Shown here: piece after piece, positions 500 to 43,781 of the stretch | Layout of the letters: each line of letters opens with the position of its first letter | How positions within the stretch are numbered: position 1 is the first letter of the stretch | Assembly (NCBI RefSeq): GCF_058153355.1 | Contig: NZ_CM177019.1 | Length of the DNA stretch: 64,000 nucleotides | Direction: 5' to 3' (one strand) | Made by a program: the position numbers and the translations under genes | Notes under the pieces: generated by a model | Seen by the model: only the letters and a program-made list of their open reading frames with translations | Told to the model about the DNA's origin: nothing | Database searches by the model: none

Positions 500-3400
500 A
501 TGTCGGTATGTCTGAAACCAGGGAAAATCATTATGCTTCTGGGCATGTTGGCAGCGTTTATGCTGTCTGACTTTGCACGAGCAGGGGTGGAATGGCAGAC
601 ATATCCTGATTCTACAGGCGAGTTTAACGGAACCGTTCCTTTTGCCGACAGCGCCAGCGTACCCGTCTATCAGGGCAGTGTTCAGCTTAATCCTGGCGAA
701 TCTCATGATGTCGGGTTTTCTGCTAAACCGAATGAATTTAGCGTTGACGATGACGCCGCTAACCTGATTGTTGCTAATCCTCAGGACAATGAAGGCGACC
801 AGTTTTCCACACCACCTGCGCTGCGCTGGGAAAATCAAACACCCCCTACCGTCAGCCTGGTGTGGGCCGATGCCGCCACGCCCGATGTACCCCTTAACCC
901 ACAACCCATTGCTAACCGTAGCTTTTGTGCTCAGGGGCTCGCCGGACGCTCGCTGGTGGCCTGGCCGCAGATTGATGCGCAGCAAACCCTCCCACTGCTC
1001 TACCTGTTGACCTCGACCGGCTATCCCTATGCGGGGACGGTGGCGCTGGTGGACCAGAAAGTGACCCTGAACATCGCGCCCGCGCAGGGCGATTTAATCT
1101 CGGTGAGCGCCAGCGGTTATAACGAAACGATCGCGGCGGCAAAAACCACCGTTGGCGACACCATCACGCTCACCGTCACCACTAAAGATTGTCAGGGCAA
1201 CGTCGCGGGTAATATTCCGTTTATTATCAAACGTAAAGATGCTGAAAATCGCCAGGGGGCAGTGAATAATAGTGCGCCAGTGGTACTGGATAGCACCGAG
1301 TTAACGACGACGGCTACCGAATACCATGGCACCTCTGATGCCAACGGCACGGCCACCATCACGGTGAGCCAACCGAACGGCCCTGGCGTCAAAACGCCAC
1401 TGGTGGTCAGCATTTCCGGCATTGCGCAAACCAGCGAAACCGCGGTGATTTTTACGGTGCTCACCAGCCCGGACGCGGCGCAGGCTACGATGTGGGGCCA
1501 TATGGCGGAAACGGTAGAAGCGCACGGTTACACCTTCAGTCGACCAAAGCTGGCGGCAGAAGTCAGCAATGAAAGCGCCACGGTCGTCGATCACAACGAA
1601 ACCTGGTCCACCTTCACCTGGAGCGGCGCAGATAACCACTGCACCGTGCTGCCCGGCATGCGCCACTTCGGCGCGCTGGCGACCGTTATCCCCACATCGG
1701 TGCAGACAGTCCTTGGCTGGCCGATGCAGGGGGATTATTACTGGTCATCGCTGGCGGGCACCACCGGGCAGCACCATGCGGCGGATGTCTCTAACCGTGG
1801 TGAAACGCAAAAGCCGGATAGCACCCCGTTTCTTGTAAGCTGCGTGGATAAACCCGCGCCTGATGTCGAGCCGAAAATCGTCCTTACGCCCGAAAACTAT
1901 GATGATACGGCACAGGCGATGAAATCGCAGGTGGGCGAAGACGCCACGATGCGTCTGACGATCACCGACAATAAAAATAACGATCAACCACTGGCGTATT
2001 ACTACTTCTCGCTGCATCTGGATGACGGCGTTAACCGCAAAAATCAAACCGATTCCGCCTGGGAAGCCCATCCGGTGCAGATTACTGGTGGTTCGAATTT
2101 GCAACAGGTTGATGCTCACACCTATGAAGGCATGACCGATGTCAACGGTCAGGCTTCGCTAACCCTGAGTCAGCCCGACGGCGCAGGCGTGAAAACCCAT
2201 ATCACGGCGAAAATGCGCAGCAATTTTACGGCTACAGATGCCAAAGACGTGATTTTTACTGTGATCACCAGCCCGGACAGCGACAAGGCGCGGATGTGGG
2301 GCCATATGCGCGGCATTGTTGTATCTGGCAGTCTGTTCAAACGCCCAGTGCTGGCGGATGAAACTGAGCATGAACTGGGATCGGTGCGGGAAAATAACGA
2401 AGACTGGGCGCTGTTCGATCAAGACACCAGTATGCAGGCTGAATGCGGCGTCGGCCATACGCCAAGTCAGAGTGGGCTGGAAAGCCTTTTTTCAGCCCAT
2501 CCCGGTAACGCGATTGGCACTGAGTATGGCTGGCCCACCGCACAACAGAACTACCTAAGCGCGGTGGAGCAAGCCACGCATTCATCGGTGAATTTGGCGA
2601 ACGGAAACGTCGACAGCTACCCCGGCTTTAAGCGAAATTACCTCTCCTGTTCGGGCAATGAGATGGTCGCGAAGGTTGAAGTGAGCACCGATCACGATGT
2701 CACCCCTGGCAGCAAAGCGCAGGCCAAAGTGGGAGACACCGTCGTGATGACCGTGCGTACGGTTAACGCGCTCAATAATACCCCCGTTCCCTTTACTGCC
2801 TTCACCATCACTAAAGGCATGGGGTATAACCGAGCGGGGCTGGTGAGCGGGTTTGATGACCCGAGCAGCGGCGCAATCTCGATGAATGGCACGCAATACG
2901 GCACATCGCAGCCGTCGATGGTTTATACGGGTACGACAGATGCACAAGGCGTGGCAACGGTCGAAATAGAGCAACCACAAGGCGTCGGGCTAAGAACGGC
3001 GCTGAGCGTAACGCCGGTAAATTCCTACCTGCCGAATACCGTTAATTACAGCGTTATTTTCACCACCCCAACCAGCCCGGACGTTATTGGCGCGCAGATG
3101 TGGGGCCATATGGATGAAACGATTACTGTTGATTCATTAACCTTTACCCGGCCTAAGCTGGCAGCAGAAATCGCCAGTCCGGATGGCACACTAACGGAAA
3201 AAAACGAAGTCTGGGCGCGCGTTAGCCAGGCCAGTACGGCCATTACCAGTAAAGGCGGTTGCGGAGCCAATATGCTGCCGCGTCGCTCACAGCTCAGTGC
3301 GCTCTATGACGCTAATAACGGCAATGCGGTGCAAACCACACACGGCTGGCCGACGCAGCGTCAGCCCTACTGGAGCAGTTCCCCCGCGGATGTAACGCCG

Positions 3401-29428: not shown

Positions 29429-30277
29429 TTAGGGTTCCTGACGTAAATAAATAGCCCGATAACAAATACTCACCAGCACTGCACCGCCGATAATATTACC
29501 CAGCATCACCGGGAGCAGATTGGCGGTAATAAAATGGCTGACCGTCAGTGCCGGAAAATTGTCTGCGCTACTGTGCGCCAGTTGCCAGAAGGAGGTAGGG
29601 GCGAAATGGCGAATGGCAATGGCGAACGGAATCACAAACAAATTGGCGATACAGTGCTCAAAGCCACTGGCGACAAACAGGGTGATGGGCAAAATCATGG
29701 CGACGATTTTGTCGCATAATGAACGTCCGCAATAACTCATCCACAGCGCCAGACAAACCATCAGATTGCACATAATGCCGAGGCTGACTGATTCAGTAAA
29801 TGTATGATGCATTTTGCCCTCGGCGCAGTGTAAAACCGCGACTCCCCACATCGCGTTTTCACTCATCACCAGCCCGGAAAACCAGATTAACAAACTGAAA
29901 CAGGCAATACCTGCCAGATTACCGCAGGCCACCAGAAGTGCATTAATCAGCCATGTTCGCAAGCTAATAACGCCCCGACTTTTTGCCATCACCGTCATTA
30001 CCGACGAGGTGAACAGGCTGGTGCCGCAAACCGCCAGCAAAATAAAGCCGAGTGTAAAGCAAAGGCCACCCACCAGATGGGTTAATGCCTGTGAAGACGG
30101 GGCATCGGCGATAACGGTAAGGTAAAAAGTAAATCCGATCGCCATAAACACGCCTGCGGACATCGCCATTAAAAAGACCGACACTTTGCTGCGGACAATT
30201 TTATGGGCGGCAATCCGTTCAGCGATTGCCGCTTTTCTGGCGCTCAACTGCAAGTCGAAAGAGAGTTTGTTTCTCAT
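29429..30277 (-). CDS. focB: Formate channel FocB (FNT family)
   Basis: 282-aa membrane ORF immediately downstream of hyfR. Confidence 0.85.
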   Translation of the reverse strand: MRNKLSFDLQLSARKAAIAERIAAHKIVRSKVSVFLMAMSAGVFMAIGFTFYLTVIADAPSSQALTHLVGGLCFTLGFILLAVCGTSLFTSSVMTVMAKSRGVISLRTWLINALLVACGNLAGIACFSLLIWFSGLVMSENAMWGVAVLHCAEGKMHHTFTESVSLGIMCNLMVCLALWMSYCGRSLCDKIVAMILPITLFVASGFEHCIANLFVIPFAIAIRHFAPTSFWQLAHSSADNFPALTVSHFITANLLPVMLGNIIGGAVLVSICYRAIYLRQEP

Positions 30278-30298: not shown

Positions 30299-32314
30299 TT
30301 ACAACACCTCGCGAACCGAGATCCCCAGCCGCTGCATTCGTGATAGCAGCGTGGTGCGCTTCATCCCTAATCGCGTCGCCGCGCCACGGGGCCCGGCAAC
30401 AATGCCATTGGTTTCTCGCAATACCTGAACAATGCGCTGACGTTCTTCTTCGTCATTCTCTGGCGTCGTCGGGTGCAGTAACTGCGCCATTGAACTGCGA
30501 AGCGCCGAATTTTCATTTAACGTCGGCAGTAAACGGCTTTGTCGGACATTAAGATGTAAATTCAGACTGTTACCGCGAGTCAGCAGTACCGCTCGCTCAA
30601 TCACGTTTTCCAGCTCGCGCACGTTGCCCGGCCAGTCCCACGACATCAACTGGCGTAGCGCTTCTGTTGGAATGGCATCAATTGTGCGATTCATATGGCG
30701 AGCCATTTTTTGTGTAAAATGTTTTGCTAAAAGAGGGATATCTTCCGGACGGTCGCGTAGCGGCGGCAATTCCAGTGGAAAGACATTCAGGCGATAAAAG
30801 AGATCGCTGCGAAACTGGCGATCTTCTACCATTTGCCACAAATCACGGTTGGTGGCGGCAATGACTCTGACATTCACCGGGATCGTTCTACTCCCACCGA
30901 GACGCTCAATTTCCCGCTCCTGTAATACGCGTAGCAGTTTGGGCTGAAGTTCTAACGGTAGATCGCCAATTTCATCGAGAAATAACGTGCCGCCATCGGC
31001 AATTTCAAAACGACCACGATGAGTGTTAATCGCGCCAGTAAATGCCCCTTTGTCGTGACCGAATAACTCACTTTCCAGAAGACTGGCGGGGATAGCGGCG
31101 CAGTTGATTTTGACCAGCGGCTTGTCGCGTCGCGGGCTCAGTTGATGGATCGCCCTGGCGATCACCTCTTTGCCGGTTCCGGTTTCACCACAAATCAACA
31201 CCGTACTGTCGCTCTTCGCCACAATATCTACCTGCTGGAGTAAATCTTCCATTGCCTGGCTTTGGTAGATAATGTCACCGACGCCCAGATTCGAAAGGAG
31301 CTGCTCGCTAAGCTGGTGATTTTCTTGCTGTAAGCTTTCCTGCAAATCGGTCATGCTACGCCAGGCATCGGCATTGCCAACGGCAATAGCGATGCGATCG
31401 GCAATATGTTGTAGTAGCTGGCAGTTTTCCTCACTAAAGAGAGTGGGAGAGGTATGCGCCAGCAACAATGCACCCGGTGTATGGTTGCCAAAGGTGAGCG
31501 GTATAAGGAGCGCAGATTCGCAGCCGTTAGATGCAAGTAAGTGTAATAACGGGTCGCGTTGCCAGAGAAACAGATCGTCTGCACGGTGCGTCAAGGTCGG
31601 TTGTCGGGTTTGTAGCGTTTGTGTCAGCAATACACTTTCGCCAGGCATACAGCGTGGCAGACACGCACAATGTGAGGCAGAAAGATCGCTGCACCACAGG
31701 CTGAACTTCTCGTTCTTTCGATGATCGCCCAGTACCATACTGACTGAAGCCAGACCGAAAAAATGATGGATCTCACGAGCGACGTCAGCGATCAGATCGT
31801 CGAGATCAAGATGTGACAACACTGCATTGGTGATATCCACCAGTACCCGATGATGATCGCGATCTTTCTCCAGCAAACGCAGCGCCACCTGCTGTTCTTC
31901 ATCATTGAGCCATGATTGCAGAACCGGAGTGATTATGTGTGCCAGCCAGTTAAACAGTGTGCAATCCTGGGGAGTAAAACGACTGCCGTGGGTGCGAATA
32001 AAGCGTAGCTCCGCCATTCCACTACTGCCGAGAAGGACGGCGTGGCGCGAATAATCGACCATCTCGCCCTGATACTCTGTTGTTGCCGTCACATCGCTGC
32101 CATCATCATGGTAGCGATAATAGAAGTTGCTTTTGAGAACATGCAGTTCAATAAGTTGTACCGGGCTGAACGGCGGCGGCAGCGGGATGAAGGCGCGTAA
32201 TAAAGACGCCTTGCCGTGTTTCTGCGCTAACCGCTCCGCGAGCATTCCGTTTACCGCTTCAATTGTTATTCCTTGTGGCGGGGCAAACATCGCCTCGTCT
32301 GACATAGCCATCAA
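30299..32314 (-). CDS. hyfR: Sigma54-dependent transcriptional activator HyfR (FhlA-like)
   Basis: GAF N-terminus, AAA+ sigma54 module with Walker A GETGTGKE and GAFTGA, C-terminal HTH. True start may be the second Met (32311). Confidence 0.9.
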   Translation of the reverse strand: MMAMSDEAMFAPPQGITIEAVNGMLAERLAQKHGKASLLRAFIPLPPPFSPVQLIELHVLKSNFYYRYHDDGSDVTATTEYQGEMVDYSRHAVLLGSSGMAELRFIRTHGSRFTPQDCTLFNWLAHIITPVLQSWLNDEEQQVALRLLEKDRDHHRVLVDITNAVLSHLDLDDLIADVAREIHHFFGLASVSMVLGDHRKNEKFSLWCSDLSASHCACLPRCMPGESVLLTQTLQTRQPTLTHRADDLFLWQRDPLLHLLASNGCESALLIPLTFGNHTPGALLLAHTSPTLFSEENCQLLQHIADRIAIAVGNADAWRSMTDLQESLQQENHQLSEQLLSNLGVGDIIYQSQAMEDLLQQVDIVAKSDSTVLICGETGTGKEVIARAIHQLSPRRDKPLVKINCAAIPASLLESELFGHDKGAFTGAINTHRGRFEIADGGTLFLDEIGDLPLELQPKLLRVLQEREIERLGGSRTIPVNVRVIAATNRDLWQMVEDRQFRSDLFYRLNVFPLELPPLRDRPEDIPLLAKHFTQKMARHMNRTIDAIPTEALRQLMSWDWPGNVRELENVIERAVLLTRGNSLNLHLNVRQSRLLPTLNENSALRSSMAQLLHPTTPENDEEERQRIVQVLRETNGIVAGPRGAATRLGMKRTTLLSRMQRLGISVREVL

Positions 32315-32340: not shown

Positions 32341-32754
32341 TCACGCAATTTTTCTGGCCATCAGATAGATGGCCGGTTCCTGCATAATTTCATCCAACAG
32401 ATGAATGAATTGAATGCTACGCGCCTGCCACACAGACGTCGCGTCATCTGCCAGTGGCGCGAATGCCCGGATCAACAGGGCGGTGTGGCTGGCGTCAATA
32501 ACAATCTCACCAAAGGTCATCACCCCCAGCATCTTACGTCGGGCTTGCTCCTCTTCGACCTGTGCAAGCCAATCTTCGTATTCCGTCTGTGGGCAGCGGA
32601 AGGCGACATTCAGACAATCAATCACGCCAACGTGATGACCGATAGCCAACGAGTAATACATTACCTGGGAGCTGTGTTCCGGCATCTCGTCGCTACTGGC
32701 GATAAATTTTTTTCGCAGCGTCCAGAAAACAATTTCCCCGCACTCCTCAGCCAT
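32341..32754 (-). CDS. hyfJ: Hydrogenase-4 component J
   Basis: 137-aa ORF at the end of the hyf gene block. Confidence 0.85.
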
Positions 32755-33505
32755 GTAACCCCCGGAGAACGCGAAAGAGTTGCTGAACGATACTATTGAG
32801 ACGCGGATCGTCGGCTTCGCGCAACCAGGTGTTAACCCGATTTCCTGTAGGATCGTCGCTTAAATGGCGCAGGAGCCGATCGCAAATTTCTCGCCCCTGA
32901 CGATAGCCCGCCAGCCGCCTCGCTTCTCGCTCAATGGCGATACGCTGTGATGGCGGGATCTGCGGCCACAGCGGTTGCATGGTCACCCCGGTGGGATCGC
33001 GATAATCCACCGCGTGAATCTTCTGTTGTAGCAAACCGAGCGCCACGGCGAAACCGTGAATGGTGGCGGCCGGTGTTGGCGGACAGCCGGGGATCCAAAC
33101 ATCAATGGGGACAATGGTGTCGCTGCCGCCCCAGACGCTGTAGAGATCGTGGAAAATACCGCCGCCGACACCGCACGCGCCGTAGGAAACACAGATTTTA
33201 TGATCGGGGGCAGACTCATATGCCCGAAGTGCAGGCATACGCATCGCCCGGGTGACTGCGCCAGTAAATAACAAAATATCGGCGTGACGAGGTGATGAAA
33301 CAACCTTAATGCCAAAGCGTTCTGCGTCGAACACTGGCGTGATGGCGGCAAAAATTTCGATTTCACAGGCGTTGCAGCCGCCACAATCCACGCGATAAAC
33401 GTAGGCCGAACGACGGATATCCTGTAGCAAATGCTGCTTCATCTTTTGCGTTTGTTCGTCCAGCGTGATGGGCTGGCTGACATGTTGCGTAAGCACTGGA
33501 CTCAT
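32747..33505 (-). CDS. hyfI: Hydrogenase-4 small subunit (NuoB-like Fe-S)
   Basis: 252-aa ORF with NuoB-type cysteine motifs ([12 protein letters not shown]). Confidence 0.9.
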
Positions 33506-34047
33506 AGCTGCTCCTTAGCCACCAGCGGTTCATCTGTGTCGTCGTTGATCAGCGTCGCGCGTTGTTTGCATTCCGGGCAGACGCTCGCTTGCGCCCACAA
33601 CATTTCGCGGTTTTGTGGTGCATTTTGTTGCTGTGCCAACAGTTCTGCAGCCAGTGCGACGGTTTTTTGCGGGGCAAACGGGCGTTCGCAACGGCTGCAA
33701 CGTTGTAGATGGAACGTCGCGCGGGTATAGAGATCGGCTTTATTGGTGACGGTCAGTTCAAAGTTATTGGTAAGCTGAATGGCTCTGGTCGGGCACACTT
33801 CTTCACAACGTCCGCAGTAAATACAACGCCCCAGATAGAGCTGCCAGGTGCGCGTATTTTGCTGGTCGTCGGTCTGGATAGTCAGCGCATTTGCCGGACA
33901 AGCACAGGCGCAGGCACCGCAGGCAATACATTGGCTGGGCATCAGGTCCGGTTTCCCGCGAAAGCCTGGGCTGACCTCCAGTGGCGCGAAGGGATATTTC
34001 ACCGTCGCGGTTTCGGCGCGCATAATAGTTTTCAGTAACTTCAGCAT
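33502..34047 (-). CDS. hyfH: Hydrogenase-4 ferredoxin-type subunit (2x[4Fe-4S])
   Basis: 181-aa ORF with two CxxCxxCxxxCP motifs. Confidence 0.9.
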
Positions 34048-34056
34048 TTTCTGTCC

Positions 34057-35772
34057 TTACTTCAGCGGCGAACGGTTACGATCAATGCCGTAGCGTTCGA
34101 TCTCTTTATACGGCACGGTTTTTGACTGGCGCTTGCGCACATCAACCAGCGTCACACGGTCGGTACAGGTGTAGCAGGGATCAAGGCTACCGATAATCAG
34201 CGGTGCGTCAGAAACGGTATTGCCGCGCAGCATGTAACGCAGCACTGGCCAGTTGGCGTAGGTGGCGGCACGACAGCGCCAGCGGAACAATTTTTGGTTA
34301 TCACCGAGCATGCTCCAGTGCACGTCTTCACCGCGTGGCGCTTCAACAAAGCCCAGCGCGAATGCGTGAGGTTTATAGCTAAAGCCTTCGGTCAGCAGTG
34401 GGGTATCCGGCATGTTGTCGAGGGCAAATTCCAGCATTGTCAGCGAATCAAACGTCTCTTTGACACGGACCATCACGCGGGAGAAGACATCGCCGCCGGT
34501 AAAGGTAAACAGCGTTTTTGGAATATTGCCGTAGTCGGCGTAGGGGTGATCAAAGCGCAAATCACGGGCAAAACCACTGCCACGGATCAGCGGCCCTACG
34601 GGGCTATAATCACGGGCGATTTGTCGGTCGAGAATGCCAATGCCCTGAGTGCGTTGTTCCATATTCGGCGTGGCAAGCAGCATCTCTACCAGCTCCGACA
34701 CGTCGGCGCGCATCTCGCGCACCAGTTTCATCGTTTGCAGACGTTGCTCTTTGAGAATATCGCGGCGAACACCACCAATCAGATTCAGACCGTAGGTTTT
34801 ACGCGACCCGGTCAGCAATTCCGCCATCGTCATCGACTTTTCCCGCACGCGGAAAAATTGCATAAAACCGGTATCAAAACCAACAAAATGGCAGGAGAGA
34901 CCAAGGTTGAGCAAATGACTATGCAGCCGTTCGACTTCCAGCAGAATCGAGCGAATAGTATGCGCTCGTTGCGGCACCTCAATCCCCAGTGCATTTTCAA
35001 CCGAGTTGGTATAGGCCACACTGTGGGCAAAACCGCAAATCCCACACACGCGGTCCGACAAGAAGGTCACTTCGTTGTAGCCCATCCGCGTTTCTGCCAG
35101 TTTCTCCATGCCGCGATGGACATAAAACAGGCGGTAATCAGCATCGACAATTTGCTCGCCATCCACAAACAAGCGGAAGTGACCTGGTTCATCGGAGGTG
35201 ATATGCAGCGGGCCAACAGGGATCACCCGCGCATCGCTGTTGCCCTCGTTGATAAACGGATACGTTTCGGTATCAGTCGTCGGTTCAGGGCGCAGTCGAT
35301 AATCCATCGCGTCTTTGCGCAGCGGATGCATATCTTCCGGCCAGTCATCGGGCAACACCAGGCGACGCTGATCCGGCAGGCCAACCGGAATCAGCCCGTA
35401 CATATCGCGAATTTCTCGCTCGCCCCAGACCGCGGCAGGGACGCGCGGTGTGACTGACGGAAACTCCCGACTGTCGGCATCGACCAGTGCCTTCACCACG
35501 ATCCAGCATTTTTCGGCCCCTTCCATTGAAAGGGCATAATAAACCGCGTAATGACCGTTAAGTGTCCGCTCGTCGTTGCCAAACAGGACCGGAAGCCAGC
35601 CATCATGTTGATAATAAAGATAATGTACAACGTCAGGCAGCAGATTTATTTTCACCGTAATGGTGACCTGTTCAGGCGTTTGTCGCTCTTCATCCAGCAC
35701 CGCGCCGGGGAACTGCGTTTTCAGGGCGGCGAGAATCGCTTCGCCACGATTTGACGATGAATTAACGTTCAC
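34057..35772 (-). CDS. hyfG: Hydrogenase-4 [NiFe] large subunit
   Basis: Start assigned to the GTG (codon 35770-35772) preceded by GGAGA ([14 protein letters not shown]). N-terminal RGxCGxCxxxH-type and C-terminal DPCxxC nickel-binding motifs. Confidence 0.9.
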
Positions 35773-37342
35773 TGTGTTTCTCCGAAACAGATGCGGTGCC
35801 TGAAGGCAAAAAATCATGCCAGGTGCTACGTTGTGCAGGCAGGTCGTGCGTCCCTGAGAGGACTATAGTGGAAGCGCCCGCCAGGATCCTGATGACAGGT
35901 TGTGGAATATGCGTTCCCATCGCCAGCATCATGACCAGCAGAATCACCATTGGCGAGGTGGTCAACCAGCCAAGTTCACCCCGGTTAACGGCCTGCGGCG
36001 GTTTCGCCATTAACACCCGCGCAGCCATCCGTACCAGGCCCGCCAGCACCAGCGTTAACAGCAATAACAGCAGGACGATAATCAACAGGTGATTACGAGC
36101 CAGTCCGGCGGTAACGGTCATAAATTCGCTAAGAAAAATGTTGAAGGGCGGCATCCCGGCCAGCGCCAGCGCACCGCCGCCAAACAGCACGGCGGTAAAT
36201 GGCATGATTTTGAGCATTCCGCAGACGACGTTGAGATCGCGCGTGCCGTACTTGAGCAGTACATTGCCGGAACCGCAGAACAGCAGCGTTTTTGCCAGAC
36301 TGTGGTTTAAGGTGTGCAGCAGCGCAGCAAAAATTCCCAGCGGCCCGCCAATGCCTAGCGCCACCGCGACCAGTCCCATGTTCTCCACGCTGGAGTACGC
36401 CAGCAGACGCTTAATGTCCCGCTGTACCAGAATGAAAAATGCCGCCACGGCAACCGACAACATGCCGAAGATGAGCAACAACCGGTTGGGGAAATCGCTG
36501 CCGATGGCCTGGCAAATAATGATGTAATAGCGAATCAGCACCAACAACGCGCAGTTCAGCAATACGGCGGAGAGCAGGGCGCTGACCGGACTCGGCGCTT
36601 CACTGTGAGCATCCGGCAGCCAGGCGTGCATGGGAAATAGCCCGGTTTTGGTGCCAAAGCCAATTAGCACAAACACAAAGGCCAACAGCATTAATGTTGG
36701 GTCAAGCAAGGACGATTGCTTAAGAACCTCGCTCCAGAATATCGCCATTTCTGCCTGCGGCATAACGCTGGCGGCGTTGGCGTATACCAGCACGGTACCG
36801 AACAGACCAAAAGCGACACCAACAGTACAAATAATGATGTACTTCCATGCAGCTTCCAGAGATGAACGCTGACCGTAAATGCCTACCAGAAACGCCGAGC
36901 TTAAGGTGGTGGCTTCGATTGCCGCCCACATCACAATCAGGTTATTGCTGGTAACAACCAGCAGCATGGTGAACAAAAACAGATGGAAGAAACCGTAGTA
37001 ATCGCACAGCGTAACGGGTGAAAGCTCGCCGTGAGCCACTTCATGACGCATGTAGCCAATCGAGTAAACACCGGTGAGAAAGCCAATCACACCAAGAATG
37101 GCGAGGAACAAACCGCCCAGACCATCAATATGAAGCCACAGTCCCGCAGCGAATATTTCTCCCGCATCAGCGGCAGTTTGGACCACCCACAGTGCCAGAA
37201 TCAGCAGCAGTGTGATCCCTAAGCTATGTAGTACTGTCACCGTGCGAGTCGCAGAGTGTTCCCGTTTCCGGCAGGCAAAACAGAGCAGCGAAAAAAGTAG
37301 CGGCGTGAGCAGGAGTAAAGCGAACATCACAGAATAACTCAT
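35762..37342 (-). CDS. hyfF: Hydrogenase-4 membrane subunit F (NuoN/antiporter-like)
   Basis: 526-aa polytopic ORF. Confidence 0.88.
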
Positions 37343-37346
37343 CTCA

Positions 37347-37997
37347 TTATCCCTTCAGCGCGGTCAAGTTGTTCACGTCCAGCGTGCCGTGGGTACGCCA
37401 TATTTTTCTTGCCAGTAACACCATCACAATGACGGCGAAGATGGCGTCGGTAGCGATACCAATTTCCACCAGTTCCGGTGCACGCCAGGCAAGAAGCGCC
37501 AGCACCAGATGGGAGCCGTTTTCCATCAGGCAGTAACCAAAAATTTGCCGCAGGATATTGCGCTGGCTGACAATGCACAGCAGGCCAAGTAGAAAATGAC
37601 CTAACGCCACCGCCAGCGCCGGTTTCAGCCCGGTAGCCATCGGTAGCTTCACGGGCTGAACGACAAATGCGCAAAGCAGGACAATTAATGCCGCGAGCAA
37701 TGCCATCATTGCCGGACCGAATAACGCTTTTTCCGGGAGGTTCTGGGGAATATTTCGTGCAGCGTAAATCATGATTAACGGTACCATCAGTACTTTGGTG
37801 ATAAAGGCGCTGGCGGACCAGATCAGCAGTTGCTCTGCGGCGAACAGGCACGAGAGGGTGGCGAAAATAGACACCAGCACCAGCGACTGGCAGGCGTAAA
37901 ATCCGCATGACAGGCGATAGCTTTTGACACTAATCACAAACAGCGATGTCAGCATCATCAGTCCCGCCAGATTATTTACGATCATAGAACCGGTCAT
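37347..37997 (-). CDS. hyfE: Hydrogenase-4 membrane subunit E
   Basis: 216-aa hydrophobic ORF. Confidence 0.85.
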
Positions 37998-38008
37998 TCA
38001 TCATCTCC

Positions 38009-39448
38009 TTACTGCAACCAGGTCGCGGCGAATACGCTGGAAATCAGCGACATCACAATCAGTACAATCAACACCAGGCGCATTGATCCTGGCAGCGGTG
38101 CGGCATCGGCGACGGCTTCGCTCGGTTTGCCAGGCACGATGCGACCAAACCAGCGAATAAACCAGGCGAAACTGGCGACCGATTCAATCATCAGCAGAAT
38201 CATGGCGGGCAGCAGGATCCAGTACTCCTCTGACAACGAAAAACCGGCAGCAAACAGTGGGAATTTACTGAAGAAGCCGTTGAACGGCGGCACGCCAGTA
38301 ATCGCCAGCGCGGCCACGCAGAAACCCACGCCAGGCAACGGCAGGGTGTGCAATACGCCACGCAGACGCGGCAACAAGCGCGTGCCGCAGCTGTAACTCA
38401 GCGCACCTGCTACAAGGAAAAACAGGCTTTTAGCGAACGCGTGGTTGACGATGTAGGCGATGCTGCCCTCCAGTGCCAGCCGCGAGCCGAAGATGGAGAG
38501 CGACAAGCCGAAGAACATCCAGCCAAGTTGAGTGATGGTCGACCAGGCCAGCAACCGCTTCATATCCTGCTGCGGCAAATACATCAGGAGGCCGTAAAGA
38601 ATGGTGACCAGTGCCATGACCATGCCAATGCCGCCAATCACATGCGGGATATTGCCGCCGTCGATAATGGCGCGGGCAAAAATGTAAACGCCCACTTTCA
38701 CCATCGATGCGGCGTGGAGATAGGCGCTGATCGGTGTTGGCGCTTCCATTGCATCCGGTAGCCACGCTTGCATCGGTAGCTGGGCCGATTTTCCCCACGC
38801 GGCAAACAGGATGCCGCCATAAACCAGATAACGTGCGTCGCCGTGTAACTCGCTCATCGCGCTAAGCGCAAACGTTCCGGTCTGCAAAAACAGCGTGGCG
38901 GCGGCAAGATACAACCCCAGCGAACCGATATGAGTGATAAGTAACGCTTTTAGTGCTGAACGTTGCGCTTTATCGCTCTGGTAATAACTGATCAACGCCC
39001 AGGAGCAGCCGCCCGTAATTTCAAAAAACAACAACTGACCGAGCAGCGTCGAGGAGAGTACCAGTCCCGCCATCGCGCCGATAAAAACCAGCAAAAATGC
39101 GTAATAACGATTCGTGCCGTTATGCGGGTGTTCGCGATTTTTATCCGTCAGATAACCCGTGGAGTAGATCGTGACCAGCAAACCGAGGAACACCACCACA
39201 AACAGAATCAGCGTACTCACGCGATCAATGACCAGGCCAAACAACGCCACATCCCCCACGTTGACCAACGTCAACGTGACGGCAACTTTATCGGCCTGAT
39301 AAAACGCGGAGATCAGCGACAACATGCACAGCGTGGTCAGCGCGGCGAACAAAATCCCCCATTCGGCGGCCCGACGTTGTGGCGAAAACGAAACGACCAG
39401 TGCGCCGATAAAAGGCAGCAATAACGTCGTCAGAGCAAGATTTTCCAT
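38009..39448 (-). CDS. hyfD: Hydrogenase-4 membrane subunit D (antiporter-like)
   Basis: 479-aa polytopic ORF. Confidence 0.88.
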   Translation of the reverse strand: MENLALTTLLLPFIGALVVSFSPQRRAAEWGILFAALTTLCMLSLISAFYQADKVAVTLTLVNVGDVALFGLVIDRVSTLILFVVVFLGLLVTIYSTGYLTDKNREHPHNGTNRYYAFLLVFIGAMAGLVLSSTLLGQLLFFEITGGCSWALISYYQSDKAQRSALKALLITHIGSLGLYLAAATLFLQTGTFALSAMSELHGDARYLVYGGILFAAWGKSAQLPMQAWLPDAMEAPTPISAYLHAASMVKVGVYIFARAIIDGGNIPHVIGGIGMVMALVTILYGLLMYLPQQDMKRLLAWSTITQLGWMFFGLSLSIFGSRLALEGSIAYIVNHAFAKSLFFLVAGALSYSCGTRLLPRLRGVLHTLPLPGVGFCVAALAITGVPPFNGFFSKFPLFAAGFSLSEEYWILLPAMILLMIESVASFAWFIRWFGRIVPGKPSEAVADAAPLPGSMRLVLIVLIVMSLISSVFAATWLQ

Positions 39449-39464
39449 ATTCCGTCAGTGCTCC

Positions 39465-40412
39465 TTACAGACCGGTTAACCAGAAGACCCAGGCAAGCGC
39501 AGCAAGGCTGAAGCCAAGCCAGGTCACATGGTGAATGAGTAAAAAACGCCCGCGTGCCAGCGTGTTTTCTGCGATAGAGGCCAGAACAAAAATCAGCAAA
39601 ACCTTGAGCAGCGTAACGACAAGTGAAGTCAGCAGGCAGGTGAGAGAAAGCTCTTGCGCGCGCCCAAAGGGCAGAAACAGGGCCACAAACAGTGCTGCCA
39701 TCACGACCTGTTTCAGCCCCAGCCCCAACTTCGCCAGCGCCAGCCCGGCACCGGAATATTCGGTCAGCGGGCCTTCCTGTAATTCCTGTTCTGCTTCAGC
39801 AACATCAAAGGGAATTTTTCCCATCTCAATGAAGCAGGCAAAACCACAGGCCAGTAACGCCAGTACGGTGGTTAGCGGCGAGTTCCAGCCCGTCGCCAGC
39901 GTCTTGCTGATCATCTCGATATGCGTGGAATCCGCTATCAGCGCCAATACCAGCAGTGAGAGAATGAGCATTGGTTCGACCAGAATGCCGAGCGTCAACT
40001 CGCGACTGGCACCGACTCCCGCAAACGGGCTTCCGGTATCCAGCCCGGAAAGAGCAAAGAAAAAACGAAACAGGGCAAGAAGATAGATAAGGGTGATCAG
40101 ATCGCCGCCGCCCGCAAAAGGGGAAACAGTAATAAATAGTGGTAGGGCCATCGCCAGCACCAGCATGCTGCTGATTAATACCCACGGCATCAGGCGGAAC
40201 ATCAGACCTGAAGATGTCGGCGCAACTTCCTGGCGTTTAAACAGTTTGTGGATATCGCGATAATCCTGCCAGATCCCCGGTCCGCGACGGGAGTGCATAC
40301 GCGCGCGTATCTGCCGGGAAATCCCTGTAAACAGTGGGGTTAGCGCCAGCAGAATCACGGCCTGTGCTAACGCAAAAATGATCAGATATCCGTCGCAAAG
40401 AGTTTGTCTCAT
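39465..40412 (-). CDS. hyfC: Hydrogenase-4 membrane subunit C (NuoH-like)
   Basis: Start placed at MRQTLCDGYLIIFALAQAV, internal to the track ORF. Confidence 0.85.
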   Translation of the reverse strand: MRQTLCDGYLIIFALAQAVILLALTPLFTGISRQIRARMHSRRGPGIWQDYRDIHKLFKRQEVAPTSSGLMFRLMPWVLISSMLVLAMALPLFITVSPFAGGGDLITLIYLLALFRFFFALSGLDTGSPFAGVGASRELTLGILVEPMLILSLLVLALIADSTHIEMISKTLATGWNSPLTTVLALLACGFACFIEMGKIPFDVAEAEQELQEGPLTEYSGAGLALAKLGLGLKQVVMAALFVALFLPFGRAQELSLTCLLTSLVVTLLKVLLIFVLASIAENTLARGRFLLIHHVTWLGFSLAALAWVFWLTGL

Positions 40413-40422
40413 GGTGATTTCC

Positions 40423-42441
40423 TTAGACGGCAATAGCGATTAGCAGCACAACCAGTGCGGCGACCACATACAGGCAATAGAGACGAAAGTCGCCGCTTTG
40501 CAGATGCTGTATTTCTTTGGCCAGCCGTTGGGTGGCGCTCACGATGGGGCGGAGCACCCGCTCATCCCAAAAGGGTTCTGTGCTCTGAGCCCTGGCGGTG
40601 ATGTGCGCGAGACCTTTGTTCAGCCTCAGCGTAGGGTCGAGCTGTTGTCGTAGACGAAATAGCGCAGAAAAGACCACACGCAGCGGCTGCATCACGCCAT
40701 TGCCTGACGGGGCCATCGCATTTTCCCAGCCGTAGCCGCATGCCCAGGCATCTCCTGTGCGACGAAACGCTGCGCGGCGCGAACGACACCACAGCCAGTA
40801 AAGGCCAGGCAGCAAAGGCATCGCCAGTAGTAACAGCAACAGTAATGAGGGAGTGACCTGTGTATGAAACGTGCCGGGGACAAGTGCCATTCCGCTGGCG
40901 ACAGTGACGGCAGGGGTATTGGTAAACGCATGGGCAATGTGCATTATTTTCGGTGCCAGCCAACTGGCACTAAGCGCAATTAATACGCAGAAAGCCGCGA
41001 GCAGTAACATGGCGACGATCATCGTATTTGGCACGTCCTGTGCCTCTTCAGCGTGTGTACTGCGCGGCGCACCACAGAAAGTAATGCCGTACATTTTGAC
41101 GAAGCACATTACTGCCAGCCCACCAGTGACTGCCAGCATCACCATAGCAATAGGACCCGCAAGTTGTAGCGCTACGGCTTCCACACGACTTAGTGAGAAC
41201 AGTGACTGCCAGGTGTACCATTCGCTGATAAAACCATTCAGCGGAGGAATGGCTGATATCGCGAGGCAACCAATCAGGCATGCTGCGGCTGTCCACGGCA
41301 TCCGTTTTGCCAGTGCCCCCATTTTTTCCATGTCGTGGGTATGCAAACGCGAAATAATCGCACCCGCGCCGAGAAATAGCAGCCCTTTGAACAGCGCATG
41401 GTTGAGCAGATGAAACAGTGCGCCGAGCAGTCCAACCACGGTGAGCAGCGGGTCGTGCAGTGACAGACCGACCATGGACACACCGACCGCCAGCAAAATA
41501 ATGCCGACGTTTTCGACGGTACTCCAGGCCAGCAGCCGTTTGATATCCTGTTCCGCCAGCGCATACAGCACGCCCAGGAGCGCGGAGATTGCGCCGATCG
41601 CCATCACCAGAATGCCCCACCACAGCGGCAAACCCGTTTGCGCCAGCAGATCCATCGCCACTTTCAGGATGCCGAAAATACCGATTTTGACCATTACGCC
41701 AGACATCAACGCCGAAGCGTGCGATGGTGCGGCAGGGTGAGCGCGCGGCAACCAGCTGTGCAACGGCATCATCCCGGCTTTCGCGCCAAAACCGAAGAAG
41801 GCCAGCAGGAACACCGCCGACGCCAGCCCCGGAGAAAGTGAAAGCGTGCGGAAACTGGCAAAATCGAGGTTGCCGCTTTCGCGCCACATCAGCAAGAAGG
41901 CAATCATAATCAGCACCGATCCGGCGTGGGCGATAAAAAAGTAGAGCATGCCAGCGTTGATTGACGTTTTATCCTGCCTGGCAATGACCAGAAACCAGGA
42001 AGACAGCGACATCATTTCAAACAGCACGATGAACCAAAAAGCGTTGTCCATCACCAGCAGGGCAACCATCGAGGCGATGAAAAGATTCATAAAGAAGCCC
42101 ATCGCCGCCGCGCCTTTGCCCTCGTATTCGCGCATATAAGTCAATGAATAGAGCGAACAAACCACCACCAGCAAGGAGATAACCAGCACCATAAATGCCG
42201 AGAGGCTATCCATTCGCAGGGTTAAATCGGCAAAGTCAAAAGGCGTGGCAAAACGGGCGACTAAAGTTACGCCTGCATGTAATTGCGTAATTCCGCTGAT
42301 GATGCCAATCGCGCCGCCCACCAGCGATGTGATGCCGGAAAGCTTAATAGCCAGTCTGTCCAGACCGAGTAAAAACAGCGAAGCCAGACTGGCAAACAGA
42401 TAGAGGATCAGCGACCAGGTTAATAATTGCAGGGCATCCAT
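40423..42441 (-). CDS. hyfB: Hydrogenase-4 membrane subunit B (NuoL-like)
   Basis: 672-aa polytopic ORF. Confidence 0.9.
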   Translation of the reverse strand: MDALQLLTWSLILYLFASLASLFLLGLDRLAIKLSGITSLVGGAIGIISGITQLHAGVTLVARFATPFDFADLTLRMDSLSAFMVLVISLLVVVCSLYSLTYMREYEGKGAAAMGFFMNLFIASMVALLVMDNAFWFIVLFEMMSLSSWFLVIARQDKTSINAGMLYFFIAHAGSVLIMIAFLLMWRESGNLDFASFRTLSLSPGLASAVFLLAFFGFGAKAGMMPLHSWLPRAHPAAPSHASALMSGVMVKIGIFGILKVAMDLLAQTGLPLWWGILVMAIGAISALLGVLYALAEQDIKRLLAWSTVENVGIILLAVGVSMVGLSLHDPLLTVVGLLGALFHLLNHALFKGLLFLGAGAIISRLHTHDMEKMGALAKRMPWTAAACLIGCLAISAIPPLNGFISEWYTWQSLFSLSRVEAVALQLAGPIAMVMLAVTGGLAVMCFVKMYGITFCGAPRSTHAEEAQDVPNTMIVAMLLLAAFCVLIALSASWLAPKIMHIAHAFTNTPAVTVASGMALVPGTFHTQVTPSLLLLLLLAMPLLPGLYWLWCRSRRAAFRRTGDAWACGYGWENAMAPSGNGVMQPLRVVFSALFRLRQQLDPTLRLNKGLAHITARAQSTEPFWDERVLRPIVSATQRLAKEIQHLQSGDFRLYCLYVVAALVVLLIAIAV

Positions 42442-43058
42442 TAGCGTTGCTCCTGAGTGAGGGAAAGGGGATCCTCCCCGCCATTGGCAAACCAGCTTGC
42501 GGCAAGGCGCTGTTTTTCTTTCATCTGACGTTGCAGGCTATCGTCGGTGATCAGCCGTAACGCATGATTCGGGCAAGCGCGAACGCAGGCCGGACCTTCT
42601 GGCAAGAAATCACACAGGTCGCATTTCACCGCGACGGTCTGGACACCCGGTTCCCAGCGCAGCAAAGCATGTTGGGTCGGCGCGTTTTCTTCGCCGTCTT
42701 TGAGTGAGCCGTCAGCCTGAAAAACATATTGCGCAGGGGCATTCACCGGACGGCTTCCTGAAGCGCTGATTGCGCCAAATGGGCAGACCACGGCGCAAAG
42801 CTTGCAGCCAATACAGAGGCTTTCGTTGAGTTGGATCGCATCATCTCTCTGGGAGATGGCATTGACCGGGCAGACCTGCAGGCAAGGGGCTTCCTCACAG
42901 TGATGACACACGACAGGGGCAGTGAGTGTTGACGTCTTCGCCAGGGCCAGGCGCGGGTGTTGCTGTAAACCTTGCGTTTTATGCACGTCCGAACAGGCAG
43001 CGAGACAGGTATTACATCCTGTACACCACAGTGGTTCGGCCACCACAAAGCGGTTCAT
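42441..43058 (-). CDS. hyfA: Hydrogenase-4 ferredoxin-type subunit A
   Basis: Start placed at MNRFVVAEPLWCTGCNTCLAAC; multiple 4Fe-4S Cys clusters. Confidence 0.85.
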   Translation of the reverse strand: MNRFVVAEPLWCTGCNTCLAACSDVHKTQGLQQHPRLALAKTSTLTAPVVCHHCEEAPCLQVCPVNAISQRDDAIQLNESLCIGCKLCAVVCPFGAISASGSRPVNAPAQYVFQADGSLKDGEENAPTQHALLRWEPGVQTVAVKCDLCDFLPEGPACVRACPNHALRLITDDSLQRQMKEKQRLAASWFANGGEDPLSLTQEQR

Positions 43059-43099
43059 GTCGGCTCCTTGAAAATGATATGAAACATTGCATTTCATAT

Positions 43100-43115
43100 T
43101 GCATAAAGGATGCCA
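43100..43115 (-). promoter_or_regulatory. Candidate sigma54 (-24/-12) promoter of the hyf operon
   Basis: Minus strand reads TGGCATCCTTTATGCA, with GG and GC at the consensus spacing, about 42 bp upstream of the hyfA start. Confidence 0.5.
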
Positions 43116-43310
43116 GTCTGATTAATTTAATATATTCAATAAGTTATGTGTTAACTGGATTCTGAGCGGTACAAAAATGATGGTCATTAACGTTCAGCAA
43201 TAAATGGATTCGACACCCGTGTCGCAGGGGAAAGCGAGAATGTGATCTTGATCACGAGAAGTGAGATGTGCTGACCGCAAGCGCAGCCAGCACGGAATGG
43301 AGTAAAGTAA

Positions 43311-43781
43311 TCAGGCGTGTTCTTTCAGCCAGTTCAGCACAACGTCGTGGTGATTGCTGGTTTTGAAATCGTCAAAGACATGTTCGATTTTGCCATCAGC
43401 GTCAATCAGGAAGCTGATGCGATGAATACCATCGTAGGTTTTGCCCATGAAGGACTTTTCACCCCAGACGCCGAATTGTTCGCACACCTGGTGGTCCTCA
43501 TCAGACAGGAGCGTAAAGTTAAGCAGCTCTTTTTCCGCAAAACGGGAGAGTTTTTCGGGTTTATCGGTGCTGATACCCAGCACATCAACGCCCGCTTTTT
43601 TCAATTCATCCATGTTATCGCGTAAGCTGCAGGCCTGTACGGTACAGCCGGGAGTCATGGCTTTTGGGTAAAAATAAACCAGAACACGCTGTCCCTGGAA
43701 GTCGGTCAAATTAACTTGTTCTCCGTCTTGATCCGGCAAGCTAAATTTCGGTGCGATATCACCGGCTTTCAGTGGATTCAT
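43311..43781 (-). CDS. bcp: Thiol peroxidase / bacterioferritin comigratory protein (peroxiredoxin)
   Basis: 156-aa ORF with the peroxidatic Cys motif region (FYPKAMTPGCTVQAC). Confidence 0.9.
   Translation of the reverse strand: MNPLKAGDIAPKFSLPDQDGEQVNLTDFQGQRVLVYFYPKAMTPGCTVQACSLRDNMDELKKAGVDVLGISTDKPEKLSRFAEKELLNFTLLSDEDHQVCEQFGVWGEKSFMGKTYDGIHRISFLIDADGKIEHVFDDFKTSNHHDVVLNWLKEHA

Follow-up and report, generated by a model that had tools for sequence, protein, structure and literature searches.

Which promoter drives the hydrogenase-4 (hyf) operon in this stretch of DNA, and does its control region hold anything beyond what is already described in Escherichia coli K-12? The window, that is the whole 64,000-nucleotide stretch analyzed here, carries the gene block bcp-hyfABCDEFGHIJ-hyfR-focB, with all its members on the minus strand. 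The upstream gene, bcp (43311..43781, -), encodes a thiol peroxidase (Pfam AhpC-TSA, E = 9.8e-42) and is annotated under that name in K-12 and other E. coli. It is followed by hyfA (42441..43058, -), whose 205-aa product is a 4Fe-4S ferredoxin-type subunit according to its Pfam Fer4 families and to the K-12 gene order, and by hyfB to hyfJ (32341..42441, -), the hydrogenase-4 subunit genes, whose ORF layout agrees with the K-12 annotation; HyfJ is HycH-like (Pfam HycH, E = 1.5e-56). The block continues with hyfR (30299..32311, -), coding for a sigma-54 enhancer-binding protein with GAF, AAA+ (GAFTGA-containing) and HTH_8 domains, and closes with the formate channel gene focB (29429..30277, -; Pfam Form_Nir_trans, E = 7.6e-63), beyond which yfgO lies convergent on the plus strand. 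The first-pass annotation had stated that the locus ends in focB and holds no hydrogenase maturation protease gene, and this was borne out: focB is the final gene, and a tblastn search of the 64-kb window with K-12 HycI found no HycI-like protease gene (best E = 2.6), while K-12 HycH as query detected HyfJ in the same window at E = 4e-36. That the protease gene is missing from the E. coli hyf operon has already been published (Finney 2020).

The same annotation had placed a sigma-54-type promoter with GG-N10-GC spacing, on the hyfA strand, within 43059..43310. This interval is exactly the 252-bp spacer between bcp (stop at 43311) and hyfA (ATG at 43058..43056). The proposed -24/-12 element, TGGCATCCTTTATGCA, is located at 43100..43115 (-), with GG at 43114..43113 and GC at 43102..43101, so that 10 nucleotides indeed separate the two dinucleotides. 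It occurs once in the window, in the orientation of hyfA, and its final base is 41 nt ahead of the hyfA ATG. Nine of the 12 sigma-54 consensus positions match and both invariant dinucleotides are present; the -12 element reads ATGCA instead of TTGCA, and position -19/-18 has TC instead of CG.

As a bare sequence pattern, this motif does not exceed chance. There are 709 instances of GG-N10-GC in the window, and TGGCACG-N4-TTGCW, at 9/12 or better with both dinucleotides, was counted 43 times against the 36 +/- 6 expected from first-order Markov simulations. The stricter TGGCA-N7-TGCW was found three times, where 2.1 were expected; its third match is TGGCAGCGTTTATGCT at 549..564 (+). We also scored the window with a position-specific matrix (PSSM) built from 25 published sigma-54 ChIP-seq motifs, the hyfA site being excluded. 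The hyfA element obtained 15.4 bits and ranked second among about 128,000 window positions, in the company of two intragenic matches on the sense strand, one in hyfF (36298..36282, -; 15.7 bits) and one at the 3' end of hyfR (30490..30474, -; 14.8 bits). These motifs, CTGGCAAAAACGCTGCT and ATGGCGCAGTTACTGCA respectively, are identical in K-12 and were not among the peaks of the sigma-54 ChIP-seq lists searched, so a high sequence score does not prove sigma-54 binding. The hyfR motif lies about 200 nt ahead of focB and could in principle serve that gene. A weak antisense site of K-12 hyfG reported by sigma-54 ChIP-seq, ACGGCACGGTTTTTGACT, is unchanged in the window at 34110..34127 (+), where it scores 6.7 bits. 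Given these counts and similar scores, the credibility of the promoter comes from its position, orientation, conservation and identity with K-12, and not from the motif itself.

The 16-mer of the window is the same as that of K-12 hyfAp, in the same locus and gene order, and the first-pass claim of a sigma-54 promoter ahead of hyf is supported. In the sigma-54 ChIP-seq table of Bonocora 2015 the K-12 hyfA site is entry OS23, with motif ATGGCATCCTTTATGCA, distance 31 and flag C, which we read as previously confirmed. With RpoN holoenzyme in gSELEX, the bcp-hyfA spacer was among the strongest peaks, at 92% alone and at 100%, as the reference peak, with NtrC (Shimada 2021). Sigma-54 binding, in vivo and in vitro, is thus established by published K-12 data on an identical 16-mer. 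The window is a piece of E. coli chromosome whose whole bcp-hyfA spacer is 96% identical (242/252) to that of K-12 MG1655, and the best match in RefSeq reaches 99.8%. K-12 shares the CRP-like site, the palindrome, the conserved block and the IHF-like site described below, as well as the leader and the Shine-Dalgarno sequence; the 10 substitutions all fall outside the five elements (these four and the -24/-12 element) and the leader. One of the differences affects the base 5' of TGGCA, which is C in the window and A in K-12, with PSSM scores of 15.4 and 13.8 bits respectively. In K-12, hyf transcription is reportedly abolished in an rpoN mutant, and primer extension is said to have placed the start about 12 nt after the GC. 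We therefore conclude, with near certainty, that the motif is hyfAp, the known sigma-54 (RpoN)-dependent promoter of E. coli hyfABCDEFGHIJ-hyfR-focB.

Counting from the -12 GC, transcription in this strain would start at 43088..43089 (-), 30-31 nt ahead of the hyfA ATG, which agrees with the distance of 31 given for the K-12 entry OS23 and with the start reportedly mapped in K-12 by primer extension. The leader is unstructured by RNA folding (z = +0.86) and contains, as read from the letters, a Shine-Dalgarno sequence AAGGAG at 43064..43069 (-), whose GGAG core is invariant in an alignment of E. coli, Citrobacter and Kosakonia spacers. Two other candidates around the start were discarded. An inverted repeat, ATATGAAA-N7-TTTCATAT (43099..43077), straddles it and is unconserved in Citrobacter and Kosakonia; with its left arm ahead of the predicted start, it is not an RNA hairpin. 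Near +1 there is also AAATGCAATGT, which we take to resemble an NsrR half-site; the idea of an NsrR site was dropped, and our search found no paper linking NsrR to the hyfA promoter.

Conservation of the control region was analyzed at two levels. We scanned for HyfA with one genome per species, which returned 45 loci, 44 of which were scored for the -24/-12 motif. In 29 of these 44 loci from other genera a motif of at least 11.6 bits was located 38-83 nt ahead of hyfA. The genera include Citrobacter (ATGGCATCCTTTGTGCA), Kosakonia, Atlantibacter, Dickeya and Pectobacterium, and the motif was also present in Morganella, Providencia, Sodalis and a Photobacterium MAG. This distribution agrees with the scores of conservation published for Yokenella, Pectobacterium, Dickeya, Brenneria and Proteus. 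The scan contained no Escherichia locus, the nearest being that of Citrobacter amalonaticus (71%); hyf is probably missing from the genome that represents E. coli, and perhaps from other Escherichia species. The comparison within the species drew on RefSeq E. coli genomes. At the second level, the spacer of E. coli was aligned with those of four Citrobacter and two Kosakonia, all with bcp upstream, and the conservation was found to be concentrated in discrete islands.

Past the hairpin that follows bcp, itself an island and treated below, comes a CRP-like site, TGTGATCTTGATCACG (43241..43256), whose centre is at about -160 relative to the predicted start. It matches TGTGA-N6-TCACA at 9 of 10 positions, a level reached by five sites in the window where 1.8 were expected, and it is conserved among the aligned genera, Citrobacter having the perfect TGTGA-N6-TCACA. 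Optimal hyf expression is said to need CRP-cAMP in K-12, and CRP presumably acts at TGTGATCTTGATCACG. Next comes a 14-bp palindrome, CGACACGGGTGTCG (43211..43224, centre at about -126), a candidate upstream activating sequence (UAS) for FhlA/HyfR. It is built from CGWCA/TGWCG half-sites and lies in the range of about 80-160 bp expected of a formate-regulon UAS; its pattern has no other match in the window (0.16 expected) and is conserved in Citrobacter and Kosakonia. The FhlA matrix motif TGWC-N6-GWCA from the Proteus paper did not fit the register of the window palindrome, where the half-sites are GACA-N4-TGTC, and for this reason the palindrome was defined from the orthologous loci. Of 33 hyfA loci, 29 have a palindrome of the class CGWCAY-N3-NGNCG in the 200 nt preceding the sigma-54 motif, where composition shuffles gave 0.1 on average and 1 at most. 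This count is partly circular, as the pattern was drawn by eye from the same loci. The class is also represented upstream of K-12 hydN, an FhlA-dependent gene, by CGTCACTAGTGTCG. An FhlA/HyfR-type protein may occupy the CGACACGGGTGTCG palindrome.

Between the palindrome and the promoter there are two further islands. The first is a block, TGACCATCATTTTTGT (that is, TGACCATCAYTTTTGT), at 43171..43186 (-), spanning -98..-83, which is the best-conserved stretch of the spacer with 15 of its 16 positions invariant in Escherichia, Citrobacter and Kosakonia. It resembles TGACATCGTTTTT, found beside the hydN palindrome, and shares bases with the -35-like hexamer of a sigma-70 promoter predicted in published work. 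The second is an IHF-like site, ATTCAATAAGTTA, at 43134..43146 (+), with one mismatch to WATCAANNNNTTR and centred at about -51. By count, the IHF-like pattern is not above chance (51 sites in the window, 48.6 expected). Its core AAC-N4-TTGA, however, is shared by Citrobacter and Kosakonia, and other genera have it at the equivalent location; IHF may act at ATTCAATAAGTTA.

These data allowed us to weigh two other explanations for the expression of hyfA. The first is that the gene owes most of its transcription to a sigma-70 promoter located in the spacer, with the hexamers ATGACC-17-CAGAAT (43187..43182 and 43164..43159), the -24/-12 element being incidental or secondary. RpoD-holoenzyme gSELEX did yield a peak in the bcp-hyfA spacer with this predicted promoter, whose -35-like hexamer sits in the strongly conserved block. 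However, each of the two hexamers matches at 4/6 positions only, and a consensus scan of 42900..43500 revealed no sigma-70-like promoter. The -10-like hexamer at 43164..43159 is unconserved in Citrobacter and Kosakonia, where the -24/-12 element is conserved, and sigma-54 binding at the 16-mer is documented by both ChIP-seq and gSELEX. We consider this explanation very improbable, and the sigma-70 sequence would be at most a weak additional promoter.

The second depends on how bcp transcription ends. A hairpin with an 11-bp stem lies 3' of bcp (43268..43293, -); it has no U-run downstream and was not called in a consensus terminator scan, but its stability is high (-20.2 kcal/mol, z = -5.3 by RNA folding), and Citrobacter and Kosakonia have GC hairpins with T-runs at the equivalent place after bcp. 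It is probably the bcp terminator. The proposal that hyf is expressed by read-through from bcp, with no promoter of consequence in the spacer, could appeal to the shared strand and to this U-less, uncalled hairpin, but it is the least probable of all, since the hairpin is so stable, the set of conserved elements (CRP-like, UAS, IHF-like and -24/-12) is intelligible only if the operon has a promoter of its own, and the deletion in genomes lacking hyf takes the spacer from just past the hairpin, so that the control region travels with hyf and not with bcp.

The first-pass annotation had described HyfR as a sigma-54 activator with GAFTGA and Walker motifs, and the protein has all of them: Walker A (GETGTGK) at residue 375, GAFTGA at 422 and the Walker B DE at 446, within a Pfam Sigma54_activat domain (PF00158, E = 4.8e-75). 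A GAF domain spans residues 169-311, and an HTH_8 domain was found at 621-661 with 21.1 bits, just below the cut-off of 22 bits. Window and K-12 HyfR are identical at 664 of 671 aligned positions. The annotation had gone on to propose that hyf expression depends on formate and HyfR. The part concerning the promoter stands, as this is a standard enhancer-dependent sigma-54 promoter; the dependence on HyfR needs one correction, the effective activator in published K-12 work being reportedly FhlA, with HyfR acting only on overexpression. Formate induction of native hyf reportedly depends on FhlA, a chromosomal deletion of hyfR is said to have no effect, and strong activation by HyfR was reportedly seen only from a foreign promoter. 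Purified HyfR is said to bind the hyf promoter region. In view of the FhlA dependence and the silent hyfR deletion, hyf is better called FhlA/HyfR-activated than simply HyfR-dependent.

A plausible order of events at this promoter can be proposed. RNA polymerase-sigma-54 would bind TGGCAT-N5-ATGCA (43115..43100, -) as a closed complex unable to open alone. An FhlA/HyfR-type enhancer-binding protein responding to formate would occupy CGACACGGGTGTCG, about 126 bp upstream, and an IHF-type bend at about -51 would loop this activator to the polymerase. The AAA+ domain, acting through the GAFTGA loop, would then hydrolyze ATP and so open the promoter, with transcription starting 30-31 nt ahead of the hyfA ATG. 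The CRP-like site at about -160 may add catabolite control.

Comparison among E. coli genomes revealed variation in both the promoter and the whole block. At -24 there is an allele series in which the CTGGCA of the window scores above the ATGGCA of K-12, and an O157:H7 strain carries CTGACA. The O157:H7 sequence, CTGACATCCTTTATGCA, aligned to window position 43113, changes the -24 GG to GA and has two further SNPs nearby. Its 61-nt promoter haplotype has an exact match in 139 complete genomes, among them EDL933, Sakai and Xuzhou21. Not every strain labelled O157:H7 shares it: at least one, TR01, carries the GG allele of the window. The -24 GG is invariant in sigma-54 promoters and a change to GA should cripple binding. 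The sequence of this allele thus predicts that the hyf sigma-54 promoter is naturally disabled in the O157:H7 lineage; a literature search found no paper on this GA allele. As for the block, the whole hyf-hyfR-focB region (from about 43261 to about 29400) is missing in about 1,127 of 5,424 complete E. coli genomes, in which yfgO comes immediately after bcp. On the left the breakpoint lies in the short interval separating the bcp hairpin from the CRP-like site, and on the right near the terminator hairpin between focB and yfgO. This absence is consistent with the presence of hyfABCDEFGHIJ in the table of gene sets whose presence or absence is tied to phylogroup B2 (Touchon 2009).

As to what all this means, the answer to the opening question is that the K-12 literature already describes the promoter and its dependence on sigma-54, as well as the FhlA/HyfR activators and the lack of a protease gene. 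The finding has little weight as a discovery, the window being a close allele of the described K-12 locus. A true sigma-54 promoter was nonetheless picked out by the first-pass annotation from sequence alone, on a motif that is in itself statistically undistinctive, and the comparison across genera yields a clean map of the elements ahead of hyf: CRP-like site, palindromic enhancer, conserved block, IHF-like site and -24/-12 element. We regard as doubtful, but worth stating, the idea that variation in hyfAp sets hydrogenase-4 expression across E. coli lineages and that, separately, the TGACCATCAYTTTTGT block binds a regulator new to hyf. If true, either the promoter variation or the TGACCATCAYTTTTGT regulator could bear on why laboratory E. 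coli are not known to have shown hydrogenase-4 activity.

Among known systems, the hyf (FHL-2) operons of Proteus mirabilis and Pectobacterium atrosepticum resemble that of the window in having a sigma-54 motif 38-83 nt ahead of hyfA and an upstream palindrome. In P. mirabilis the activity of a hyf promoter reporter falls in fhlA and rpoN mutants, and in Pectobacterium hyfR is required for FHL-2 activity. A gene for a HycI-like protease (hyfK or hycI) belongs to these operons, which produce an active enzyme, whereas the E. coli operon has no protease gene and terminates with hyfR-focB. A wider likeness is found with the formate regulon (hycA, hypA, fdhF and hydN), whose members have, as hyf does, a -24/-12 promoter, a UAS of CGWCA/TGWCG half-sites and a GAF-AAA+-HTH activator. 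The arrangement differs: upstream of hyf there is one palindrome, at about -126, and in the hyc-hyp and fdhF regions several half-sites are set out in other ways. Unlike the rest of the formate regulon, hyf encodes its own paralogous activator, HyfR, within the operon.
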